Source: Promethearchaeia archaeon (GTDB lineage Archaea > Asgardarchaeota > Lokiarchaeia > Sigyniarchaeales > SOKP01). Taken from it: a stretch of DNA of 10,044 nt. The notes beneath the pieces are model-generated. The model was not told the origin of the DNA and did not search any database. It worked only from the letters and a program-made list of their open reading frames with translations. Both the position numbers and the translations under genes were made by a program. The DNA is taken from NCBI GenBank assembly GCA_046497275.1, contig JAWOFX010000117.1, positions 1 to 10,044 of the forward strand, given 5' to 3'. Shown here one piece after another: positions 1-10,044 of this stretch (positions are counted from its first letter, which is position 1; each line of letters opens with the position of its first letter).

Positions 1-624
1 TTTTGCGGTATTTTCTTTCAATTTAATCCATAGTTCATTTATTTCTTTTCTCACTTCAAGGAATTGCTCAATTTTTTTGAGAAGGATATCTCTTGCTCTA
101 TCAAACTCTCGCTGCACATCATTTAGTTCTTGATCTATTTGATTTAGCTTATCGCCTTCAATCATTTTGTTTTTGGCTTTTTCTACATCTAGAGCTTTTT
201 TAATTACCACTTTTCGTTTTTCTGCTACCTCTTTTAACGCGTCTGCAAATTCTTCTTTCTTTGCTACCAAATAATCTTTTCTCACGGCTAAATCTTTCAT
301 TGCATTGAGATATTTATTATTTGCTTCTATGTATTCATCATTTTGACGGATTAATTGTTCCATAAGATTGACATCTTGTTCTTTTACATTTGATCTATGC
401 TCTCGAGCAAGCATTTGCATTTGTTTGTAGACATCTCTTAAAGTTCGATTGAGTGAGTCCCTTGTAATATTCATATCGGAAATTTTATCCGCGAGTTTTT
501 TTTGATTCTTAATAACTTTGCTCTGCTCTTTAGCTTGGTCTTTTAATTTATCCACAAGCTCATTTTCTAAGCGTGCGAGATCCAGTTCGTCTTCATGCGT
601 AATTATTGGAATGCATATCACCAC
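1..624 (-). CDS. Partial all-alpha-helical coiled-coil protein (>=208 codons, C-terminus beyond the left edge); possible BAR-like fold
   Basis: Translated by hand; not in the ORF track because no stop lies in the window. The frame is open from the in-frame TAA at 643-645 to base 1: VVICIPIITHEDELDLARLENELVDKLKDQAKEQSKVIKNQKKLADKISDMNITRDSLNRTLRDVYKQMQMLAREHRSNVKEQDVNLMEQLIRQNDEYIEANNKYLNAMKDLAVRKDYLVAKKEEFADALKEVAEKRKVVIKKALDVEKAKNKMIEGDKLNQIDQELNDVQREFDRARDILLKKIEQFLEVRKEINELWIKLKENTAK. It has one Pro, one Gly and heptad-like patterning. The start is uncertain (GTG 624/621 or ATT 612). CDS existence is well supported; the BAR call is tentative. Confidence 0.85.
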   Translation of the reverse strand, partial: MVICIPIITHEDELDLARLENELVDKLKDQAKEQSKVIKNQKKLADKISDMNITRDSLNRTLRDVYKQMQMLAREHRSNVKEQDVNLMEQLIRQNDEYIEANNKYLNAMKDLAVRKDYLVAKKEEFADALKEVAEKRKVVIKKALDVEKAKNKMIEGDKLNQIDQELNDVQREFDRARDILLKKIEQFLEVRKEINELWIKLKENTAK

Positions 625-720
625 ATTTTCTTTAATTTTAATTTATATTTTTTTAATTAAAATTGAATTAATCTATGCATACAATAAGAAAATTTAGACT
701 ATTATAATTTTTTCACATTC

Positions 721-1752
721 TTAATAGGGAAAATATGAAGTGATGATACTATCGTAATTAGTCGATTTTAAAACCTTCACATTAATATTTTGCCCAATCA
801 TTTGATCAGAATATTCAAAAGGTTTATTTAACAATATTTTGCATGAGGATATATTATCAATTACTCCTATACATTCATTCTTCCAGCGTCCTGGTGATTT
901 AATCACTACAGAAATAATATCACCTTCCTTAATATCTAATGAAAAGAGGGCTCGATCGTGAATATTAAAATCTTGCGGACCCAATTTAAGTTTTATATCA
1001 TACTTTTTTTCTAAATCTGAAAGTTGTTTATAGAAATATCCCCATGTTTTTGGTCTAATTTTTTTAAGTTTTCTGCCAGTTTTATATATCAAATATTTTT
1101 GGATTCCAATTTGAATATCAACATTAGAATACCCTTTATTTCTTAAATCCACAATAAATTTAATAATTTCTTGAATGTCTTCATCATTTTCACCAGGAAA
1201 CCATACTGGAGCGAGAAGCACATCAATTTCTGTTTCTAATAAGAGATGAATATTATTAATTAATTTTTCCAAATCATAATATTTGCAGTTCGATAAATAT
1301 TGTGCCAGAGATTCGTTTAAGGTGTTTAAACTGATATTTAATCTCGTAATATTAACGTGTTCTAAATTCTTTATAATGGAGGGAGTAAGAAGAAGTCCAT
1401 TGGTTTGGATTGAAATCACTTTTACACCGGTAAGTTCCCATAAATTTTCAATTAGGGTGTAGAGATTTTTATAAAGAAAAATTTCTCCATAGGGAGCTAA
1501 ATGAATTTCAATATCATAAGCACCTTTGAGTTCGATGAGTTTTTTTACCCCATTTATGAAATATTGAGAATCAACAATAAAATTAGTTTCATAGTCACCC
1601 GCACTCACAAAACAATATCTACACGATAAATTACACAGAGTTAATGGTTTGAGTTCGATGAGATTTGTTCCTCTATCAATGATACCGATGAAATCTAAGC
1701 CTAATAGCGGGATACCAGATTTCTCATCTATATATATTATTTCTCGTGTCAT
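721..1752 (-). CDS. Radical SAM protein with C-terminal TRAM-like domain (COG2100-like, function unknown)
   Basis: Canonical CxxxCxxC (CNLSCRYC) is preceded by the GIIDRGTN segment typical of this archaeal family. It also has IQTNG and ISLNTL core motifs and a beta-rich C-terminal ~65 aa (GDIISVVIKSPGRWKNECIGV...IGQNINVKV) consistent with TRAM. Confidence 0.85.
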   Translation of the reverse strand: MTREIIYIDEKSGIPLLGLDFIGIIDRGTNLIELKPLTLCNLSCRYCFVSAGDYETNFIVDSQYFINGVKKLIELKGAYDIEIHLAPYGEIFLYKNLYTLIENLWELTGVKVISIQTNGLLLTPSIIKNLEHVNITRLNISLNTLNESLAQYLSNCKYYDLEKLINNIHLLLETEIDVLLAPVWFPGENDEDIQEIIKFIVDLRNKGYSNVDIQIGIQKYLIYKTGRKLKKIRPKTWGYFYKQLSDLEKKYDIKLKLGPQDFNIHDRALFSLDIKEGDIISVVIKSPGRWKNECIGVIDNISSCKILLNKPFEYSDQMIGQNINVKVLKSTNYDSIITSYFPY

Positions 1753-1766
1753 TTTAATTAGAGATA

Positions 1767-2837
1767 TTAAAATTTATATCTTAAGATTCCAAGTAAGGAC
1801 CCTAAATCTGTTAATTGCTCGCCAGCAGGATGTTTAGTATTAAGAATATCAACGTCCCCTCCAGTATTTTCCACATTTTTAATGATATCTTCGATTTCTA
1901 ATTTTTTTGATTTCGCTGCTCCCCTAATAACTGTATCAGCCACCAACAACTGTTTAATAGCCCCCCTTTGAGCTGCTTTTGAAACTTCGTCAAATCCTAT
2001 CACGATTAAATCAGCATCTTTCCCAAGTTGAGTTAAAACCTCTTCTATCTTTTCTGTTTCTTGTATAATTTTTACATTTTTTCTCATTTTCGCTAATTCT
2101 TGAGATTTTAGAGTTTCAAAGATTGCGCTTTCTGTCCCTGAACTGGCATGGATCGTTCTTATATTTTTTAGATCTAGATTTGAATGTTCTTTCAACCATC
2201 TAACAAATTTATCCTTAGTAGTTCCCGGACCTGAGATTATGATTAGATTAATTTCGCGAGTTTCTACATTAGATTCAATCAGTCTTTGAACATCTTCAAA
2301 AAAGTCGTTCAGAAATTTTCTACGAAATGACTGTTCATATCGTTTTCCGGGTATATTTTTTGTAATTGTCGCTATATTATTATGACTATAATTAGTAATT
2401 AAAGCAACATTTGCTAAACCTGTTTCCATTGCGACAATAAGCATAACAAAATTGGTCGCAAGTTTTGAAGATTCTTTTAATCTCATCAGATCTTGTCTCA
2501 TCCATTCATCTTTAGTAATTGTAATCTTCTGATTAATTTCTAGATTAAAGGTATGATACGAGCCAAAGGAAACAAAATCATCAGGACCCTCAAGAATAGT
2601 ACCTTTAATTCTTAGTCGATTACTAAATTCATGAAAAGCAACATCTTCTACTTTTAAAGTCAGTCTCATTACTTTCCGTTCTCCTTTGCTCCCTTCTTTC
2701 ATTACAACACGCCTTTGGGTTAAAGAGGATACTATATCTCCTTTTGCAATAATGTTGTAGAGGCTCCATAAATCATTCAAATCTTGGACTCTTACAGTGA
2801 TTTGCCCTTGTTTTTTATCTTGATCTAAGATCTTCAA
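1767..2837 (-). CDS. pelA: Pelota (aDom34), stalled-ribosome rescue / mRNA surveillance factor
   Basis: 356 aa. Carries pelota motifs DLNDLWSLYNII, RLRIKG, YHT, IPGK, GPG, GA(I)KQLLVAD and C-terminal GILRY. TTG start with GGAGAT SD at 2849-2844. Confidence 0.96.
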   Translation of the reverse strand: MKILDQDKKQGQITVRVQDLNDLWSLYNIIAKGDIVSSLTQRRVVMKEGSKGERKVMRLTLKVEDVAFHEFSNRLRIKGTILEGPDDFVSFGSYHTFNLEINQKITITKDEWMRQDLMRLKESSKLATNFVMLIVAMETGLANVALITNYSHNNIATITKNIPGKRYEQSFRRKFLNDFFEDVQRLIESNVETREINLIIISGPGTTKDKFVRWLKEHSNLDLKNIRTIHASSGTESAIFETLKSQELAKMRKNVKIIQETEKIEEVLTQLGKDADLIVIGFDEVSKAAQRGAIKQLLVADTVIRGAAKSKKLEIEDIIKNVENTGGDVDILNTKHPAGEQLTDLGSLLGILRYKF

Positions 2838-2932
2838 TTATTTATCTCCAATAGAATTAATTGATTAAATTCAGAGAGTATTTAGTTAAAAATAAGATTA
2901 ATTCTAATTAAAAATAGATCTATTAAAGATTT

Positions 2933-2971
2933 AAAAAAAAGAAAAAAATAAAATATAAGTGCGAAAAAAAA
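2933..2971 (-). terminator. Putative oligo-T archaeal terminator of the micro-ORF
   Basis: On the minus strand a T8 run (2971-2964) starts 5 nt after the TAA stop, and a T7-C-T8 run follows at 2948-2933. Confidence 0.55.
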
Positions 2972-2976
2972 GGATT

Positions 2977-3132
2977 TTATTCTTGCTTTTCTAAAGCTTG
3001 TTTAAGTTTTTCAAGTTCTTCTTGACGTTTCTTTTTCTCTTCCTCGATTTTCTTTCTTTCTTCCTCGCTTAAGCTCTGTAATTTTACTCCCTTTTTGATT
3101 TCGTTCTTAAGCTCATCATCCAGTTGTGGCAT
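2977..3132 (-). CDS. Unannotated 51-aa microprotein: WH2-like motif plus charged single alpha-helix
   Basis: Translated by hand: MPQLDDELKNEIKKGVKLQSLSEEERKKIEEEKKKRQEELEKLKQALEKQE*. ATG at 3132, TAA at 2979-2977, SD AAGGTG 8 nt upstream, BRE/TATA-like element upstream, T-tracts downstream. It is too short for the ORF track. Confidence refers to coding status; the WH2 function is inferred. Confidence 0.85.
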   Translation of the reverse strand: MPQLDDELKNEIKKGVKLQSLSEEERKKIEEEKKKRQEELEKLKQALEKQE

Positions 3133-3140
3133 ATTATCGA

Positions 3141-3146
3141 CACCTT
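3141..3146 (-). promoter_or_regulatory. Shine-Dalgarno (AAGGTG) of the micro-ORF
   Basis: The minus strand reads AAGGTG-tcgataat-ATG, an archaeal GGTG-type SD at 8-nt spacing. Confidence 0.75.
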
Positions 3147-3216
3147 GATATTATTTTTTATATTCTTATCTAACAAATGTAACAAAATTCGTATTTTTAA
3201 GTTTAAGTTTCTCCGG

Positions 3217-3229
3217 TTTAAAACTTTTC
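3217..3229 (-). promoter_or_regulatory. Putative BRE + TATA promoter for the micro-ORF
   Basis: The minus strand reads GAAAAG-TTTTAAA, a purine-rich BRE-like element directly followed by a TATA-like box, about 85 nt upstream of the ATG. AT-rich background limits specificity. Confidence 0.5.
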
Positions 3230-3276
3230 TTTCGCTTATCGGTTTGAGACAAGTTTTTAATTTTTGATTATAAGTT

Positions 3277-3741
3277 TCAAATATTCTCAGATCTTATATC
3301 CAATTTCATTAAATATGCTGCTTCTTGATTTCGATAATAGTTTTCTATTTTTTTAACAATGCGAAATTTGAATTTTTTATACAAACTAATTGCAGTCAAA
3401 TTGTGAATACTGACATTTAATATAATTTGTATAAAATTATTTGATTTAGACTTAATAAGTTCTAAAGCTTTTCCAAGAAGGAAAGACCCATAGCCTTTCC
3501 CTTGATGTTTCGGATTAATAAGCAAGTTAATTAAGTTAGCTCGATCTTTCCTATCTTTAACAATTACAACGAAACCTATTAACTTTTTAAAAAATCCTTC
3601 GGTTTCTATCTTATAAAAAATAAAATTACTTTGGATCAATTTCTTCATTAATTGTTTAGAGAATGCGTTTTCTTTAAATACTTTTTTTTCTAAATTTACT
3701 AATTTTCTTAGATCTTTCATTTGTACTTTTTCAGCTTTCAT
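3277..3741 (-). CDS. GNAT N-acetyltransferase, RimI/Ard1-like
   Basis: Acetyl-CoA-binding motif A (INPKHQGKGYGSFLL) and a RimI-type C-terminus (LNVSIHNLTAISLYKKFKF...IENYYRNQEAAYLM). The start overlaps the upstream stop by 11 nt. Confidence 0.88.
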   Translation of the reverse strand: MKAEKVQMKDLRKLVNLEKKVFKENAFSKQLMKKLIQSNFIFYKIETEGFFKKLIGFVVIVKDRKDRANLINLLINPKHQGKGYGSFLLGKALELIKSKSNNFIQIILNVSIHNLTAISLYKKFKFRIVKKIENYYRNQEAAYLMKLDIRSENI

Positions 3742-4882
3742 TGCCTTCTATCTCATTTTTAAACACATTTATAGGTGTTTTTTCTGCAATTTGTCGATAT
3801 GGTTTTTTCCTAAACGGTAAAACTTCTAATATGAATCCCTTCACCTCATATTGATTAAGAAAATCTAAAAATTTGTCATCAATCATGATATAATAAGGAA
3901 TTTTAATACTGTCTTTTTCAAAAACAAGGAATTCCGATGGTATTTGAGATTCATATAGTAAATCATCAAATAATAATTTTAATTCGAGTTCATCTCCTTC
4001 AATTTGACCATATAAAAGTAAGCCCTCTTCGGTTATCTCTTCATATGGTAATTTAATGTTCTGAGCACGATTAAAATATCGATTTTTTAATTGATAATAA
4101 TCTTTTGCTCTTATAGAACAAAAATGAATCTTTAATCTGGTTTTTGAAGATGTTTTTTGAATCAATTCAAGTGCTTTTTCTCTACTATTATTAACAGAAG
4201 CAAGAGTCCCCTTTTTAAGTGTAAATCCTCTTTTTTTTAATGATTGACTATTAGGAAAGCAATATTCAAATTCGTTCAAATTAATAAAATCTGCGCCAAT
4301 TTTATCCAGATAAAATATAAATTCATATAGTTCTTTTAAGTAGTTTGCTTTGGGAATAATGGGTACTTCAGCTCCCACTACCATCCCTTTATTCATCGCG
4401 ATCTTGATATTTGACCATTTTTCCTTTGATGGGTGAAAACGTATCTCATCCAATCCTGCTTTGGATAAATCTTCAGCAATAGTATGATTGAAATTTATCC
4501 CATTTGTATATAAATGAATATGAAATTTTTCATTAAACTGTGTTTTAACTAAATGAATATATTCTATAGTTTTTTTAATATTTTTTCCAATTAACGGTTC
4601 CCCACCTGTAATACTCATTCCTTTAGATCCAGATTTTTTCAACTCCTTCAAAATGTCAGATTTTTTTTCAATTTTTATTTCATTAATGAAAGAAATATCT
4701 TTTCCTCGCCTTTCCTCTGAGATTGGGCAGTACCAAGAGCATTGATCGGGTTTTTGACAGATTCCATTTAAAAAAAGTACGGATTTTTGTCCTTTTAGGC
4801 ATTGTTGACATCCTTTAGGGATCCCTCTTTCTTTTATAAAATAATTCGATTCCTTTGATTCACTAATTTTCTCATTACCCAT
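3731..4882 (-). CDS. Radical SAM protein (COG2108-like, PFL-activase-related archaeal family) with atypical Cys spacing
   Basis: N-terminal GIPKGCQQCLKG (CxxC), cluster motif CQKPDQCSWYCP, SITGGEP, HIHLYTNG, DEIRFHP, FINLNEFE, and IHFCS...KD..QLKNR. Confidence 0.85.
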   Translation of the reverse strand: MGNEKISESKESNYFIKERGIPKGCQQCLKGQKSVLFLNGICQKPDQCSWYCPISEERRGKDISFINEIKIEKKSDILKELKKSGSKGMSITGGEPLIGKNIKKTIEYIHLVKTQFNEKFHIHLYTNGINFNHTIAEDLSKAGLDEIRFHPSKEKWSNIKIAMNKGMVVGAEVPIIPKANYLKELYEFIFYLDKIGADFINLNEFEYCFPNSQSLKKRGFTLKKGTLASVNNSREKALELIQKTSSKTRLKIHFCSIRAKDYYQLKNRYFNRAQNIKLPYEEITEEGLLLYGQIEGDELELKLLFDDLLYESQIPSEFLVFEKDSIKIPYYIMIDDKFLDFLNQYEVKGFILEVLPFRKKPYRQIAEKTPINVFKNEIEGNES

Positions 4883-4883
4883 T

Positions 4884-5582
4884 TTAATTAATCTTTCTTC
4901 TTATTATCGAATTTTCTCTCGCTAATTTAGTTAATACTGCTTCGGGTGATTCTTCCAGAGATAATTCTCTTTTTAGAAAAACTCCCGTTCTTCCATGTTC
5001 TTCTCTTCTAAGAAGAACCCGCTTTCTTTCATTAATTGTATCAATACTTACACCCACTTTTTTTGCAGCAATACTTTCATTATTTAAAATTGAAAGTTCC
5101 TCGTGACCTTTTGGTAATGGATTAATTAATACCAGTCTTTTATCGATACCTGGGACTCTTTCATTATTTATAAGGTGTTCATAATTTATTTTTCCTCCAA
5201 AATCATAGAATTCGAGTGAAGTTTTATATAATTTAGTTAATGGAATCGTAATTGCGGTTAGTTCATTTAAATATATATAGAGTTTGATTGAGTCCCCAGG
5301 TGTCGCCATTATGAGTTCTCGTCGATAATTTTCATAGTTATTTTGGTTTAATATGAAATCAATTTTATATGTGGGAATTTTATGGAGAAATATTATATCT
5401 ATATCACTATATTGGTCTACATCTCCCCGAGCGACACTCCCATATACAAAAGGAAAGAGATTATTTTTCTTAAATAATTTCAGTAGCTTTTTAGCTTGCT
5501 TTCTTTTTTCTTCAAGTAATTTCCAATGTTTTTTGGAATATTTTACTTTATTATATAAGTCCCTTTGTATATTATCAGGCAT
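4884..5582 (-). CDS. Predicted nucleotidyltransferase, DNA polymerase beta superfamily (COG2413-like conserved archaeal family)
   Basis: Catalytic signature YGSVARGDVDQYSDIDII (GS-x-DxD). Family-typical segments ATP, EFYDFGG, RVPGIDKRL and GVSIDTINERKRVLLRREEHGRTGVF. Confidence 0.88.
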   Translation of the reverse strand: MPDNIQRDLYNKVKYSKKHWKLLEEKRKQAKKLLKLFKKNNLFPFVYGSVARGDVDQYSDIDIIFLHKIPTYKIDFILNQNNYENYRRELIMATPGDSIKLYIYLNELTAITIPLTKLYKTSLEFYDFGGKINYEHLINNERVPGIDKRLVLINPLPKGHEELSILNNESIAAKKVGVSIDTINERKRVLLRREEHGRTGVFLKRELSLEESPEAVLTKLARENSIIRRKIN

Positions 5583-6372
5583 TTTTTTTAATTATTTTTA
5601 TGATATATCCATATAAAATAGTTTCATAATACCGAAAATTATATCGTGATTTTTGAATTGAGATGATATTTTTTTTATCGTGAATAATTTTTGGTTGGAT
5701 TTTTTCAATAATTTTCAATGTTTTGTTTTTTAAGAATAAATAAGAGAAATGGTTAAAAATAAAATACAATTTTTTTTGAGGATTTTCTAAAGACTTATTA
5801 TGAAATGAAATTAGTTTTGATTTAGATAATTTTGGATTTATTGCGATAATTAAATGATTATTTGGATCATCGAAGAGGTTTTGATAGTAATAATTTTTAT
5901 TCGAATAATCAATATAAATATAATACGAGTTATTTATAAGCCCTTTAGTATTAAGAAATTTTGAAAGTTTTGAAAGTGTTTCATTGATTTGCAAAGGATC
6001 TTTTCCTTTTTTAAAATTGTAAATAAAGTCCGGAAAAAGATTGAGAAAGATAACATTATAGCCATTCGAACAAAAAGCTTCAATTAAAACCTTATATAAT
6101 TTTTTAAACCAATAATTTCCAACAAAAAATATATGAGGAGTGTTTCTCGAAGTGAAATTTCTATTTTTAATTAAGAGTATTGAAGAAAAGATTTTTAAAA
6201 TCGGAAGTTCGGATTTTAAATATGTCAAATTAATACTCTTGATATGAGAATTAGAAATAAATCCACGCCATCGCGAAATTGCTTTATATATTCTAACTGA
6301 AATTAGCATTATCAGAAGAAAAATAAGTACTAAGATACTAATTGTAATCCAATCTAATTGAAAAATATCCAT
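5575..6372 (-). CDS. Hypothetical protein with N-terminal membrane anchor; possibly a degenerate alpha/beta-hydrolase-like domain
   Basis: 265-aa open frame in very AT-rich DNA. Hydrophobic N-terminus (WITISILVLIFLLIMLISV) is followed by basic residues. It overlaps the downstream gene by 8 nt and starts 19 nt after cutA. Confidence 0.7.
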   Translation of the reverse strand: MDIFQLDWITISILVLIFLLIMLISVRIYKAISRWRGFISNSHIKSINLTYLKSELPILKIFSSILLIKNRNFTSRNTPHIFFVGNYWFKKLYKVLIEAFCSNGYNVIFLNLFPDFIYNFKKGKDPLQINETLSKLSKFLNTKGLINNSYYIYIDYSNKNYYYQNLFDDPNNHLIIAINPKLSKSKLISFHNKSLENPQKKLYFIFNHFSYLFLKNKTLKIIEKIQPKIIHDKKNIISIQKSRYNFRYYETILYGYIIKIIKKNA

Positions 6373-6391
6373 AGAAAAATTAACTCTTATA

Positions 6392-6709
6392 TTATTCCTT
6401 TATTGAATTCTTTATCCATTTTAAATAGTTGTCAGATCCCATATCGATTTTAAATCCTATACATTCTGGAGTTTCATAGCTATGCATAGTTTCAATGGTC
6501 TGAATTAATTCAGTTGCTTTCTTTTTTATTGTCTTCATTATTAACAAATATTCATTATCTTCCTCAATAGTACCTTTCCACCAAAAAATTGAATGAACAT
6601 CATGTATTATATTCACACAAGCGACAAGCTTACTCTCAATTAATTTATTAGCAATTTTTATTCCTTCTTCTTTTGTTGGCACACTTACAAAAAATACAAA
6701 TGAACTCAT
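6392..6709 (-). CDS. cutA: CutA divalent-cation tolerance protein
   Basis: 105 aa with family motifs LVACVNI, SIFWWKG, EYLLIMKT, HSYETPEC and YLKWI. Confidence 0.95.
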   Translation of the reverse strand: MSSFVFFVSVPTKEEGIKIANKLIESKLVACVNIIHDVHSIFWWKGTIEEDNEYLLIMKTIKKKATELIQTIETMHSYETPECIGFKIDMGSDNYLKWIKNSIKE

Positions 6710-6800
6710 ATGAAAGATAAGATTGAAAAAGATAAAAACTCTAATTAAAATTTGGATAAATTAAATCTATTATTCACTTTTTATTTTTTAATTAAATGAA

Positions 6801-6814
6801 AAGAAATTTAAATA
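6801..6814 (+). promoter_or_regulatory. Putative BRE + TATA promoter of the longin gene
   Basis: AAGAAA followed by TTTAAATA, about 60 nt upstream of the TTG start, in the divergent intergenic region. Confidence 0.45.
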
Positions 6815-6858
6815 ATTGGAATTTTATTTTATATCTATAAAAAACTGGTATAAAATAT

Positions 6859-6864
6859 AAGGTG
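6859..6864 (+). promoter_or_regulatory. Shine-Dalgarno (AAGGTG) of the longin gene
   Basis: AAGGTG lies 10 nt before the TTG at 6875. Confidence 0.65.
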
Positions 6865-6874
6865 TCAGTAAAAT

Positions 6875-7600
6875 TTGATCCACAATGTCTACATAATTGA
6901 CCAGAGAACCGGAATTTGCCTACTCCATCGGAAATATGGGTCCATAGAATTTAATCAAGACCTTGTTAGCGGTTTTCTAACAGCATTAAAAGATTTTAGT
7001 ATCGAATTCTCAAAAGGTTCGGGTGAACTTAAAGTGATTGATATGCAAGTGTTTTATTTAATGCTTGTTTTTCGAGAGGGAGTGCTGGTGACTGCTGCCG
7101 CTGATAAAAATGATGATGCAAAAATAACACATAAAGCATTAAATAATATTATCGACAAGTTTGTTGATAAATATGAGGTTAATCTTGAAAATTGGACGGG
7201 AGATGTGCGAATTTTCCGAGATTTTTCAGGGGAAGTAGATGAAATATTACAATCGGGAAGAGTAGCCGAGATCCCAATAAGAATTCCAATATTAAAGATT
7301 TATAAAAAAGACTTTAAAAAATCTCAATCACGGCTACAAAAAAAGGGCTTAACGCTCACTGAGGATGATCTGCGTTCTGTTCCTGACACTAAACCAGAAT
7401 GGACTTCGAAGAGGTTGCCTAAGCAAGTTATAACGCAAGGATTTTTAGATGAAAAGCAATATGAAATAGCACATTTAGCTGATGGATTTCACACGGTGAC
7501 TGATATTGCCGAAGATGCGGGGATACCAGAATCGAAAATACAAATTATAATAGATAATCTCGATAATCTTGGATTACTTAAATTTATTGAAATAAAATAG
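6875..7600 (+). CDS. Longin-domain protein with C-terminal winged helix (NPRL2-like architecture)
   Basis: The N-terminal ~128 aa follow the longin pattern (IHNVYII..TGICLLHRKYG...DLVSGFLTALKDF...NWTGDVRIF). The C-terminal LADGFHTVTDIAEDAGIPESKIQIIIDNLDNLGLL is a winged-helix pattern. TTG start with SD. Confidence 0.8.
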   Translation: MIHNVYIIDQRTGICLLHRKYGSIEFNQDLVSGFLTALKDFSIEFSKGSGELKVIDMQVFYLMLVFREGVLVTAAADKNDDAKITHKALNNIIDKFVDKYEVNLENWTGDVRIFRDFSGEVDEILQSGRVAEIPIRIPILKIYKKDFKKSQSRLQKKGLTLTEDDLRSVPDTKPEWTSKRLPKQVITQGFLDEKQYEIAHLADGFHTVTDIAEDAGIPESKIQIIIDNLDNLGLLKFIEIK

Positions 7601-7796
7601 AATTAATATTTTAAGAAATTATTAATCTTTTTTGAAATAATTACAGATTTTATAATTTTAACAAGATTTTAAAAATAATTTAAAAAAAACAGATATTAGA
7701 TTTTTTCCATTATAAATTTCTTTAATTATTTTTTAAAGGATGCTATTTTTTTCATAAAAAAATATTATTTACCACAGAAATATTTACATAATTAAT

Positions 7797-9269
7797 ATGA
7801 ATGTGAATAAAATCGGAGAAAACATTTATGAGATTACACCAAAAACATTGATGGCAAGAGTGTTTGGTAAAATCGAAAGTTTTGAAATGAAGGTTCCCGT
7901 TCATATTTACGCAAATGAAGATATTCTTTCCAAGATTCAAGAAGACAGAACTTTGGAACAAATCAGTAATGTTGCGTGTTTAGAAGGAGTTGAAAAGCAT
8001 GTGATCGCTCTTTCCGATGCTCATCAAGGTTATGGTTTCTGTATAGGGGCTGTTGCGGGCACAGAGGCGGAACATGGGATGATATCCCCTGGTGGTGTTG
8101 GGTATGATATTAATTGTGGCGTAAGATTATTAAGTACAAATTTTCGTTATAATAAGATTCAGAAAAAACTTCCATCTTTATTAAATCACATATTTAATCG
8201 TATTCCATCGGGTTTGGGTTCTAAAGGGAGATTAAAAATAAATTATAATCAGTTAGACAATGTTTTAGACTATGGGGTTGAATGGGCTTTAGAAAATGAT
8301 TTTGCAAAGGAAAATGATCTTAATAAATGTGAAGAAAATGGACGATTAAATAACGCAGATTCTAATCTCGTATCAAAAAAAGCTAAACAGAGAGGAATAA
8401 GGCAATTGGGGAGTTTAGGAAGTGGCAACCATTTTATAGAAATACAAAAAGTCGATAAAATATATAATTCAGAGATCGCCAAAAGATTAGGGATTTTTGA
8501 AAAGGATCAAATTTCAGTCATGATTCATACAGGAAGTAGAGCCTTAGGGCATCAAATTTGCACAGAATCAATTAGAAAGTTTGAGAAAGCTATGAAAAAG
8601 TATGAAGTGATGATACCAGACAGAGAATTGTCGTGTGTTCCTGCTCATACCATAGAAGCCCGAGAATATCTCAAACAAATGGCTTGTGCGGCAAATTTTG
8701 GGTTCTGCAATAGACAACTTATCACTTTCTGGATTAGAGAATCATTTAGAGAAGTCTTTGGTCGAAATCACGAGAATTCTGATTTAAGTTTAGTATATGA
8801 TCTTTGCCATAATATCTTGAAGCAGGAGGAACATCTTGTTGAAGGTAAGAAAAAGAATCTGAATATTCATCGAAAAGGAGCAACCCGTGCTTTCCCATCC
8901 AATCATCCAGTTCTACCTCAAGAATATATGAAAATTGGACAACCGGTTCTAATTCCTGGAACTATGGGATCTGCATCTTATTTATGTGTTGGGAAAGAAA
9001 ATGCTATGAATTTAACATTTGGATCAACTGTCCACGGATCAGGGAGGGTTATGTCACGATCAAGGGCGAAATCAACCTATTGGGGTGAAGATGTAAAAAA
9101 CCATCTTAAAAAAAGAGGTATTCTTGTAAAAGCAAGGTCTCAAAAAGTCATAGCTGAAGAAGCGCCCGGAGCCTATAAGGATATTAATCAAGTTGTTCAA
9201 ATAAATGAAGACCTCGATATTATAGAGAAGATAGCAAGAATGATTCCGATAGGAGTGGTAAAAGGATAA
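7797..9269 (+). CDS. rtcB: RtcB 3'-phosphate/5'-OH RNA ligase (tRNA-splicing ligase), archaeal type, no intein
   Basis: 490 aa with catalytic motifs DAHQGYG, GYDINCGVR, LGSGNHF, HTGSR, CHN, HRKGAT, PGTMG, HGSGR (guanylylated His) and EEAPGAYK, ending in VKG. Confidence 0.98.
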   Translation: MNVNKIGENIYEITPKTLMARVFGKIESFEMKVPVHIYANEDILSKIQEDRTLEQISNVACLEGVEKHVIALSDAHQGYGFCIGAVAGTEAEHGMISPGGVGYDINCGVRLLSTNFRYNKIQKKLPSLLNHIFNRIPSGLGSKGRLKINYNQLDNVLDYGVEWALENDFAKENDLNKCEENGRLNNADSNLVSKKAKQRGIRQLGSLGSGNHFIEIQKVDKIYNSEIAKRLGIFEKDQISVMIHTGSRALGHQICTESIRKFEKAMKKYEVMIPDRELSCVPAHTIEAREYLKQMACAANFGFCNRQLITFWIRESFREVFGRNHENSDLSLVYDLCHNILKQEEHLVEGKKKNLNIHRKGATRAFPSNHPVLPQEYMKIGQPVLIPGTMGSASYLCVGKENAMNLTFGSTVHGSGRVMSRSRAKSTYWGEDVKNHLKKRGILVKARSQKVIAEEAPGAYKDINQVVQINEDLDIIEKIARMIPIGVVKG

Positions 9270-9300
9270 AGATAGAGACAAGTATTCTTTTTATATTTAA

Positions 9301-9738
9301 TTAGATATCAAAAACTATTTCTATTTCCCACCGATCATCCTTCTCTTCTATGTTCATATATGAATAGGTTATTGCCTTTACTTCAGTACCGATTTCATGT
9401 TTATTTTTATCAAATTTCTCACCGTTTAGAACTGCGTTCAATTCATAGTCATCATCAATTTCTTTTATATAAATAATAGAGATCTTACTAAAAATTAGAT
9501 GATCAACATCAAAAATGTATAATAGTTCAGAGAGAAAATCAAATAATAAAGCTTCTTTATCTTCTGCTTTTATTGTCAGACTTTTTTCACGTTTCTTAGA
9601 AATTTTACTTAAATCTGGGGATATTGTGGTTATAAGAGCATAGGCACATTGTGCATATGCTTCTTCGATTGTGGATCCATAGGCTCTAACTTTCACGTCT
9701 GCTGTATGTTCTTCAAATTTAAAACCGGGTTTATTCAT
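9301..9738 (-). CDS. Archease (RtcB activator)
   Basis: 145 aa with N-terminal EHTADV, the LLFDFLSELLY helix, C-terminal GTEVKAITY and terminal VFDI. Confidence 0.96.
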   Translation of the reverse strand: MNKPGFKFEEHTADVKVRAYGSTIEEAYAQCAYALITTISPDLSKISKKREKSLTIKAEDKEALLFDFLSELLYIFDVDHLIFSKISIIYIKEIDDDYELNAVLNGEKFDKNKHEIGTEVKAITYSYMNIEEKDDRWEIEIVFDI

Positions 9739-9843
9739 AATATTATGAAATTATTCTGAAATCAAATTGTTAAACATTTTAATCAATTGCTCTAAATTAA
9801 TTTTTTCTATGGGTTTAAAATATTAAAAAATTATCTTTAATTG

Positions 9844-10044
9844 ATGCTCAGTAAATATGCTGAAGATCTGATTTTTTCTAAAAATGTCAAAGTTAAGAAG
9901 AAATTTTCTAATAGAGAATTGAAATTATATAATTATTTTTCTTATAAAACAGGGGGGTTTTTTCCTGATAATATTATTGTTATGAATGATTTCATATTCT
10001 ACTTTATCAATCCAAAATATTACTTCTTATTGTCTGAATATATT
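9844..10044 (+). CDS. Partial ORF (N-terminal 67 codons) running off the right edge; weak resemblance to the N-terminus of archaeal NusA-like KH proteins
   Basis: Translated by hand, no stop in the window: MLSKYAEDLIFSKNVKVKKKFSNRELKLYNYFSYKTGGFFPDNIIVMNDFIFYFINPKYYFLLSEYI. An in-frame TTG at 9841 is an alternative start. It is divergent from archease. Confidence 0.6.
   Translation, partial: MLSKYAEDLIFSKNVKVKKKFSNRELKLYNYFSYKTGGFFPDNIIVMNDFIFYFINPKYYFLLSEYI

Follow-up and report, generated by a model that had tools for sequence, protein, structure and literature searches.

A longin protein of Asgard archaea with an NPRL2-type winged helix and a recurrent membrane protein neighbour

We analysed a stretch of 10,044 nucleotides (nt) from a Promethearchaeia archaeon (assembly GCA_046497275.1, contig JAWOFX010000117.1, positions 1 to 10,044; hereafter the window), focusing on the gene at 6875..7600 (+), which encodes a protein of 241 amino acids (aa) with a longin domain and an insertion-bearing winged helix. 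The initial annotation described it as a compact relative of the GATOR1 subunit NPRL2 that may regulate a Rag-like GTPase. Our results show that the protein is NPRL2-like in layout and winged helix and is outside the catalytic NPRL2 family. Its winged helix is related to NPRL2 with specific though moderate affinity; the rest of the protein is not, the longin being of another class. In other Asgard lineages the gene is paired with that of a seven-transmembrane (7TM) protein. We propose, with about even confidence, that the 241-aa protein is a soluble, non-catalytic longin adaptor docked on this 7TM protein and relaying a membrane signal to a small GTPase.

Affinities of the two domains

The open reading frame begins with a TTG start codon, and an AGGTG motif that may act in ribosome binding lies 10 nt before it (6860..6864, +). 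At E ≤ 0.001 there were 409 homologues, named mostly as Promethearchaeota or Lokiarchaeota, the best 120 of which were 71–100% identical. An AlphaFold2 model (predicted local distance difference test, pLDDT, 84) contained a longin at residues 1–128, a strand at 135–140, the insertion, and a winged helix reaching residue 241. The model and the profile and structure matches agree with the layout first proposed, and the sequence motifs quoted for it were found on re-reading. One database protein, P0151, joins an EF-Tu-like N-terminus to a fragment of the 241-aa protein and a PKD-like domain and is probably an assembly chimera.

Residues 6–110 of the C-terminal model aligned structurally with residues 172–237 of NPRL2 (8fw5_B). 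The first winged-helix strand (7277..7294, +), with a conserved P138-x-L140, corresponds to the start of this NPRL2 segment, and the region at 7409..7597 (+) has the motif C/A-D-G-x-x-T-x-x-E/D-I-A and an acidic helix-turn-helix; its assignment as NPRL2-type comes from profile and structure. The NPRL2 segment that the initial annotation quoted, checked against PDB 6ces_N (195–236), does align without gaps, with 11 of 42 positions identical. A share of this identity is lineage-specific, F205 being shared by 14 of the 47 family members and N228 by 5. Among the flanking stretches likened to NPRL2, P138-x-L140 alone is family-conserved, and KDFKKSQ lies in the insertion. This insertion is what had been taken for a charged linker. 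The stretch exists, but it is a 37-aa segment within the winged-helix domain (residues 142–178; 7298..7408, +), predicted from the model to form an amphipathic helix and a flexible loop, with a net charge of +3. By alignment it is confined to Lokiarchaeia-type orthologues and missing from other Asgard orthologues. The closest structures to the winged helix were of the strand-first type seen in NPRL2 and HTH_47 rather than those of transcription factors, and its affinity to NPRL2 exceeded that to generic MarR, ArsR, or Lrp domains.

The longin (residues 1–128; 6875..7258, +) gave a different result. Its best matches by both profile and fold were longins of TRAPP, Sec22, Fuz/Mon1, and AP-sigma/mu, so the doubt raised at the outset, that both domains might be of generic type, proved right for this half only. 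Residues G13, G33, A37, F41, D80, F96, F117, and G128 are invariant. Among the top 50 PDB matches, those aligned over both domains were GATOR1/SEA chains. A G-P (GP) motif before beta2 is a trait of the catalytic subunits NPRL2, FLCN, and SMCR8 (PMC12290439) and is found in longins of GTPase-activating proteins (GAPs). By contrast, the beta1–beta2 turn here reads T-G-I, without proline (6908..6916, +), and none of 42 orthologues has the GP motif. At the site of the NPRL2 loop that carries the R78 arginine finger, the model has a tight beta4–beta5 turn of two residues (R67-E68-G69; 7073..7081, +). No arginine is conserved there, position 67 being lysine in 14, arginine in 13, and glycine in 6 of the 42 orthologues; the sole conserved arginine, R19, lies where beta2 ends. 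The Pfam families NPR2 (PF06218), NPR3 (PF03666), and HTH_NPRL3 (PF24064) did not match. As a positive control, GP longins of the same genome matched NPRL2 residues 7–42 (E = 0.004) and carry both GP and ARG-G. These are unrelated to the family of the 241-aa protein (profile probability 0.8%), and none of the nine profile matches has an NPRL2-type winged helix. The longin of the 241-aa protein is therefore of a non-GAP class and lacks the catalytic features of NPRL2.

Like the 241-aa protein, NPRL2 and NPRL3 (Npr2/Npr3; GATOR1/SEACIT) have a strand-first winged helix with a DG motif after the longin. The 241-aa protein ends after one winged helix, whereas NPRL2 (380 aa) has at least two such repeats, with a second match at 335–370. 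An Asgard family with a longin and a small NPRL2-type C-terminal domain, found in most Thor but few Loki genomes, has been described (Liu et al., bioRxiv 10.1101/2020.10.19.343400), so this architecture was already known in Asgard archaea. It may be the same family or a homologous Thor pair with a longin and two winged helices; the orthologue studied here occurs in nearly all genomes of its own Loki family. The passages of the preprint consulted mention neither a 7TM partner nor a loss of GAP motifs. The Asgard GAP-type longins with the GP motif (Traffic 2025, PMC12290439) have the longin fold in common. Longins of TRAPP Bet5/Trs23, Mon1-Ccz1/Fuzzy-Inturned, AP sigma/mu, and Sec22 lack a C-terminal winged helix, while HTH_47 (PF16221) of DUF4910-type peptidases (PDB 3k9t) and RRE/PqqD-like domains occur in bacterial enzymes without a longin. 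The kind of protein is known, and we found no earlier description of the variant with a non-GAP longin and a conserved 7TM pairing in the literature searched.

Distribution and pairing with a 7TM protein

Full-length matches (~60–83% identity) occurred in nearly all 68 genomes of the source organism's family, and one sister genus had matches at ~50% identity. Orthologues in other Asgard families are ~205 aa long, the size difference being the insertion. An orthologue is present in the majority of Thor-type genomes and of f1 Loki genomes. In a quick tree, the Loki proteins and all 33 proteins encoded next to a 7TM gene fell together in one clade (SH-aLRT 99), which was separate from the paralogues with two winged helices.

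At 13 of 15 non-Loki loci, the orthologue is tail-to-tail with a gene for a membrane protein of 220–290 aa, and the other neighbours differ by family. From coordinates compared by eye, the pair is present in 73 of 76 non-Loki genomes; in G108 the two genes are on different contigs, and G112 and G212 gave no match. The pairing spans nine families, mostly with gaps of 8–122 bp; one family has the two genes in the same direction, 38 bp apart. Six to seven helices are predicted in the membrane protein, which matches no known family, and among the matches listed its named homologues are almost all from Asgard archaea. The source genome has one copy (G000:C49:7828-8721), unlinked to the gene of the 241-aa protein, and 66 of the 68 genomes of its family have the 7TM protein. 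It was not found in genus g10 or in families f5, f7, f16, f24, and f29, and in G001 and G210, each a single contig, longins alone matched the family profile. The presence and absence of the 7TM protein and of the orthologue match.

Complex prediction for the 241-aa protein and the 7TM protein of its own genome scored 0.53 compared with 0.00 for the best control. Of 80 solved pairs, 58 attained the mark used, as did 2 of 110 mismatched pairs; 7 of these solved pairs and both mismatched ones were at or below 0.60. The runs shared at least 94% of contacts, with a partner pLDDT of at least 77. The score lends weak support to a partner that had been guessed beforehand from gene order.

The Loki 7TM proteins (L033:1468-2340 on G000:C49) have their own insertion, in the probably cytoplasmic loop after helix 3, which parallels the Loki-specific insertion in the longin–winged-helix protein. 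Four proteins of the same genome (G000:C84:2998-4131, C74:1134-2234, C74:3-1013, and C105:23162-24466) have a membrane domain of six to seven helices fused to a C-terminal longin of this class, and many larger membrane proteins also end in a longin. We regard the four fusions as an architectural parallel only, because no homology between their membrane domains and the 7TM partner was detected.

Proposed function and alternatives

The lack of NPRL2 GAP features, together with the 7TM gene pairing, makes a membrane-sensor adaptor likelier than a miniature GATOR1 enzyme. The 241-aa protein would bind the cytoplasmic face of the 7TM protein, and its longin, as a homo- or heterodimer, could offer a small GTPase a docking surface at the conserved helix 1, in the manner of TRAPP, Mon1-Ccz1, and MglB dimers (PMC10933270). 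The signal would pass to one of the genome's Rag-, Arf-, or Rab-like GTPases, toward which the protein may act as a scaffold or a regulator of the guanine nucleotide exchange factor (GEF) type rather than an arginine-finger GAP. The acidic winged helix may be a protein–protein module, as in GATOR1. No GTPase gene is linked to that of the 241-aa protein; genome layout rarely pairs GTPases with regulators, and the pairing of Asgard longins with their partners is a recognised gap (PMC10933270). Many of the paired genomes are related (f9 is Thorarchaeota), so the count of 73 of 76 overstates their independence.

Somewhat unlikely in our view is that the protein is a generic longin-dimer platform, either a GEF or an MglB-like finger-less GAP, working with a paralogue such as C172:38110-38748, and that the 7TM adjacency is inherited gene order. 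The best longin matches include GEF platforms (TRAPP, Mon1-Ccz1, Fuzzy), this paralogue falls in the same clade, and the 7TM and longin–winged-helix genes are unlinked in Loki. Against this, only the 7TM gene persists as a neighbour across nine families while others change, presence and absence match, and the complex prediction weakly passed. We consider it improbable that the protein is a one-component transcription regulator of the TrmB, Lrp, or MarR kind, with a sensing longin and a DNA-binding winged helix. Although archaeal transcription factors occur among the profile matches and 36 of 47 members have weak Pfam TrmB or other helix-turn-helix matches, these are under the cut-off (TrmB, 20.7 bits vs 25.6 for the 241-aa protein). 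A search for features of such regulators found no basic recognition helix or wing and no family hidden Markov model above its cut-off. The acidic helix-turn-helix (net charge −5; mean −3.1 over 42 family members) counts against DNA binding, as do the nearest structures.

It is very unlikely that the protein is a true NPRL2 orthologue that acts on a Rag/Gtr-like GTPase as a GAP with a catalytic arginine finger. In favour of this are the order of the domains and the type of winged helix, the genome's 27 Gtr1_RagA matches above the Pfam cut-off (about 10 strong), and the fact that a longin–winged-helix paralogue gave the sole PF06218 match (E 9e-4) among 151 Asgard genomes. These points are set against the missing GP motif and finger loop, the variable R67, and the separate GP/ARG-G longins. 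Least probable of all is an accessory role in tRNA ligation alongside the neighbouring RtcB/archease genes: rtcB adjoins the gene in all six Loki-type loci examined, but its orientation varies, the whole block including cutA, radical SAM, and pelota is syntenic, and rtcB is near no non-Loki locus examined.

Only tentatively do we extend the adaptor proposal to a conserved Asgard two-protein module, in which an unnamed stand-alone 7TM sensor and a longin–winged-helix adaptor couple a membrane signal to small GTPases. If this is true, and given the separate GP/arginine-finger longins, the two halves of NPRL2 reside in separate proteins of Asgard archaea, and longin complexes docked on 7TM sensors, in a way comparable to recruitment of C9orf72-SMCR8-WDR41 by PQLC2 (PMC12290439), before eukaryotes arose. 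The pair is specific, small (about 205 + 220 aa in insertion-less lineages), and testable. The label of archaeal NPRL2 is corrected in that the genomes examined encode the GAP-type longin and the winged helix of NPRL2 type on separate proteins, which bears on the assembly of GATOR1.

Paralogues and genomic neighbourhood

The source genome encodes ~43 longins of this class, along with three paralogues that combine a longin and a winged helix. A diverged, insertion-less paralogue of 213 aa (L065, G000:C172:38110-41589) is a possible heterodimer partner of the 241-aa protein; two genes away, a GP/ARG longin is encoded as a fusion with a Rag-like GTPase. A 169-aa protein (L067, G000:C140:4362-4868) has an N-terminal CxxC-containing domain and an NPRL2-type winged helix (E 3e-19) without a longin. 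In other Asgard genomes, between one and three such winged helices accompany a longin or a roadblock domain. Thor-type tandem pairs (L040:532-1356 + 1483-2334; L047:91-981 + 1099-1914) have a longin and two NPRL2-type winged helices in each protein and no GP motif; they are candidates for an NPRL2/NPRL3-like heterodimer and perhaps the family of Liu et al. In several Asgard families, a roadblock-like domain and linker precede one or two such winged helices (L041, L042, L043, L044, L045, L046, L048, L049, L052). In G038, a second orthologue copy (L014:4038-5249) is fused to TPR-like repeats, with kinase-like/TPR genes on both sides.

Within the window, Pfam confirmed cutA (6392-6709, divergent), rtcB (7797-9269, downstream of the gene of the 241-aa protein), and archease (9301-9738, convergent), which form part of a Loki synteny block conserved with inversions. 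No significant Pfam match was obtained for a coiled-coil protein truncated at the end of the contig (1-624) or for a charged 51-aa open reading frame (2977-3132). Between these two are genes that were named by eye, one radical-SAM-like (721-1752) and one pelota-like (1767-2837).
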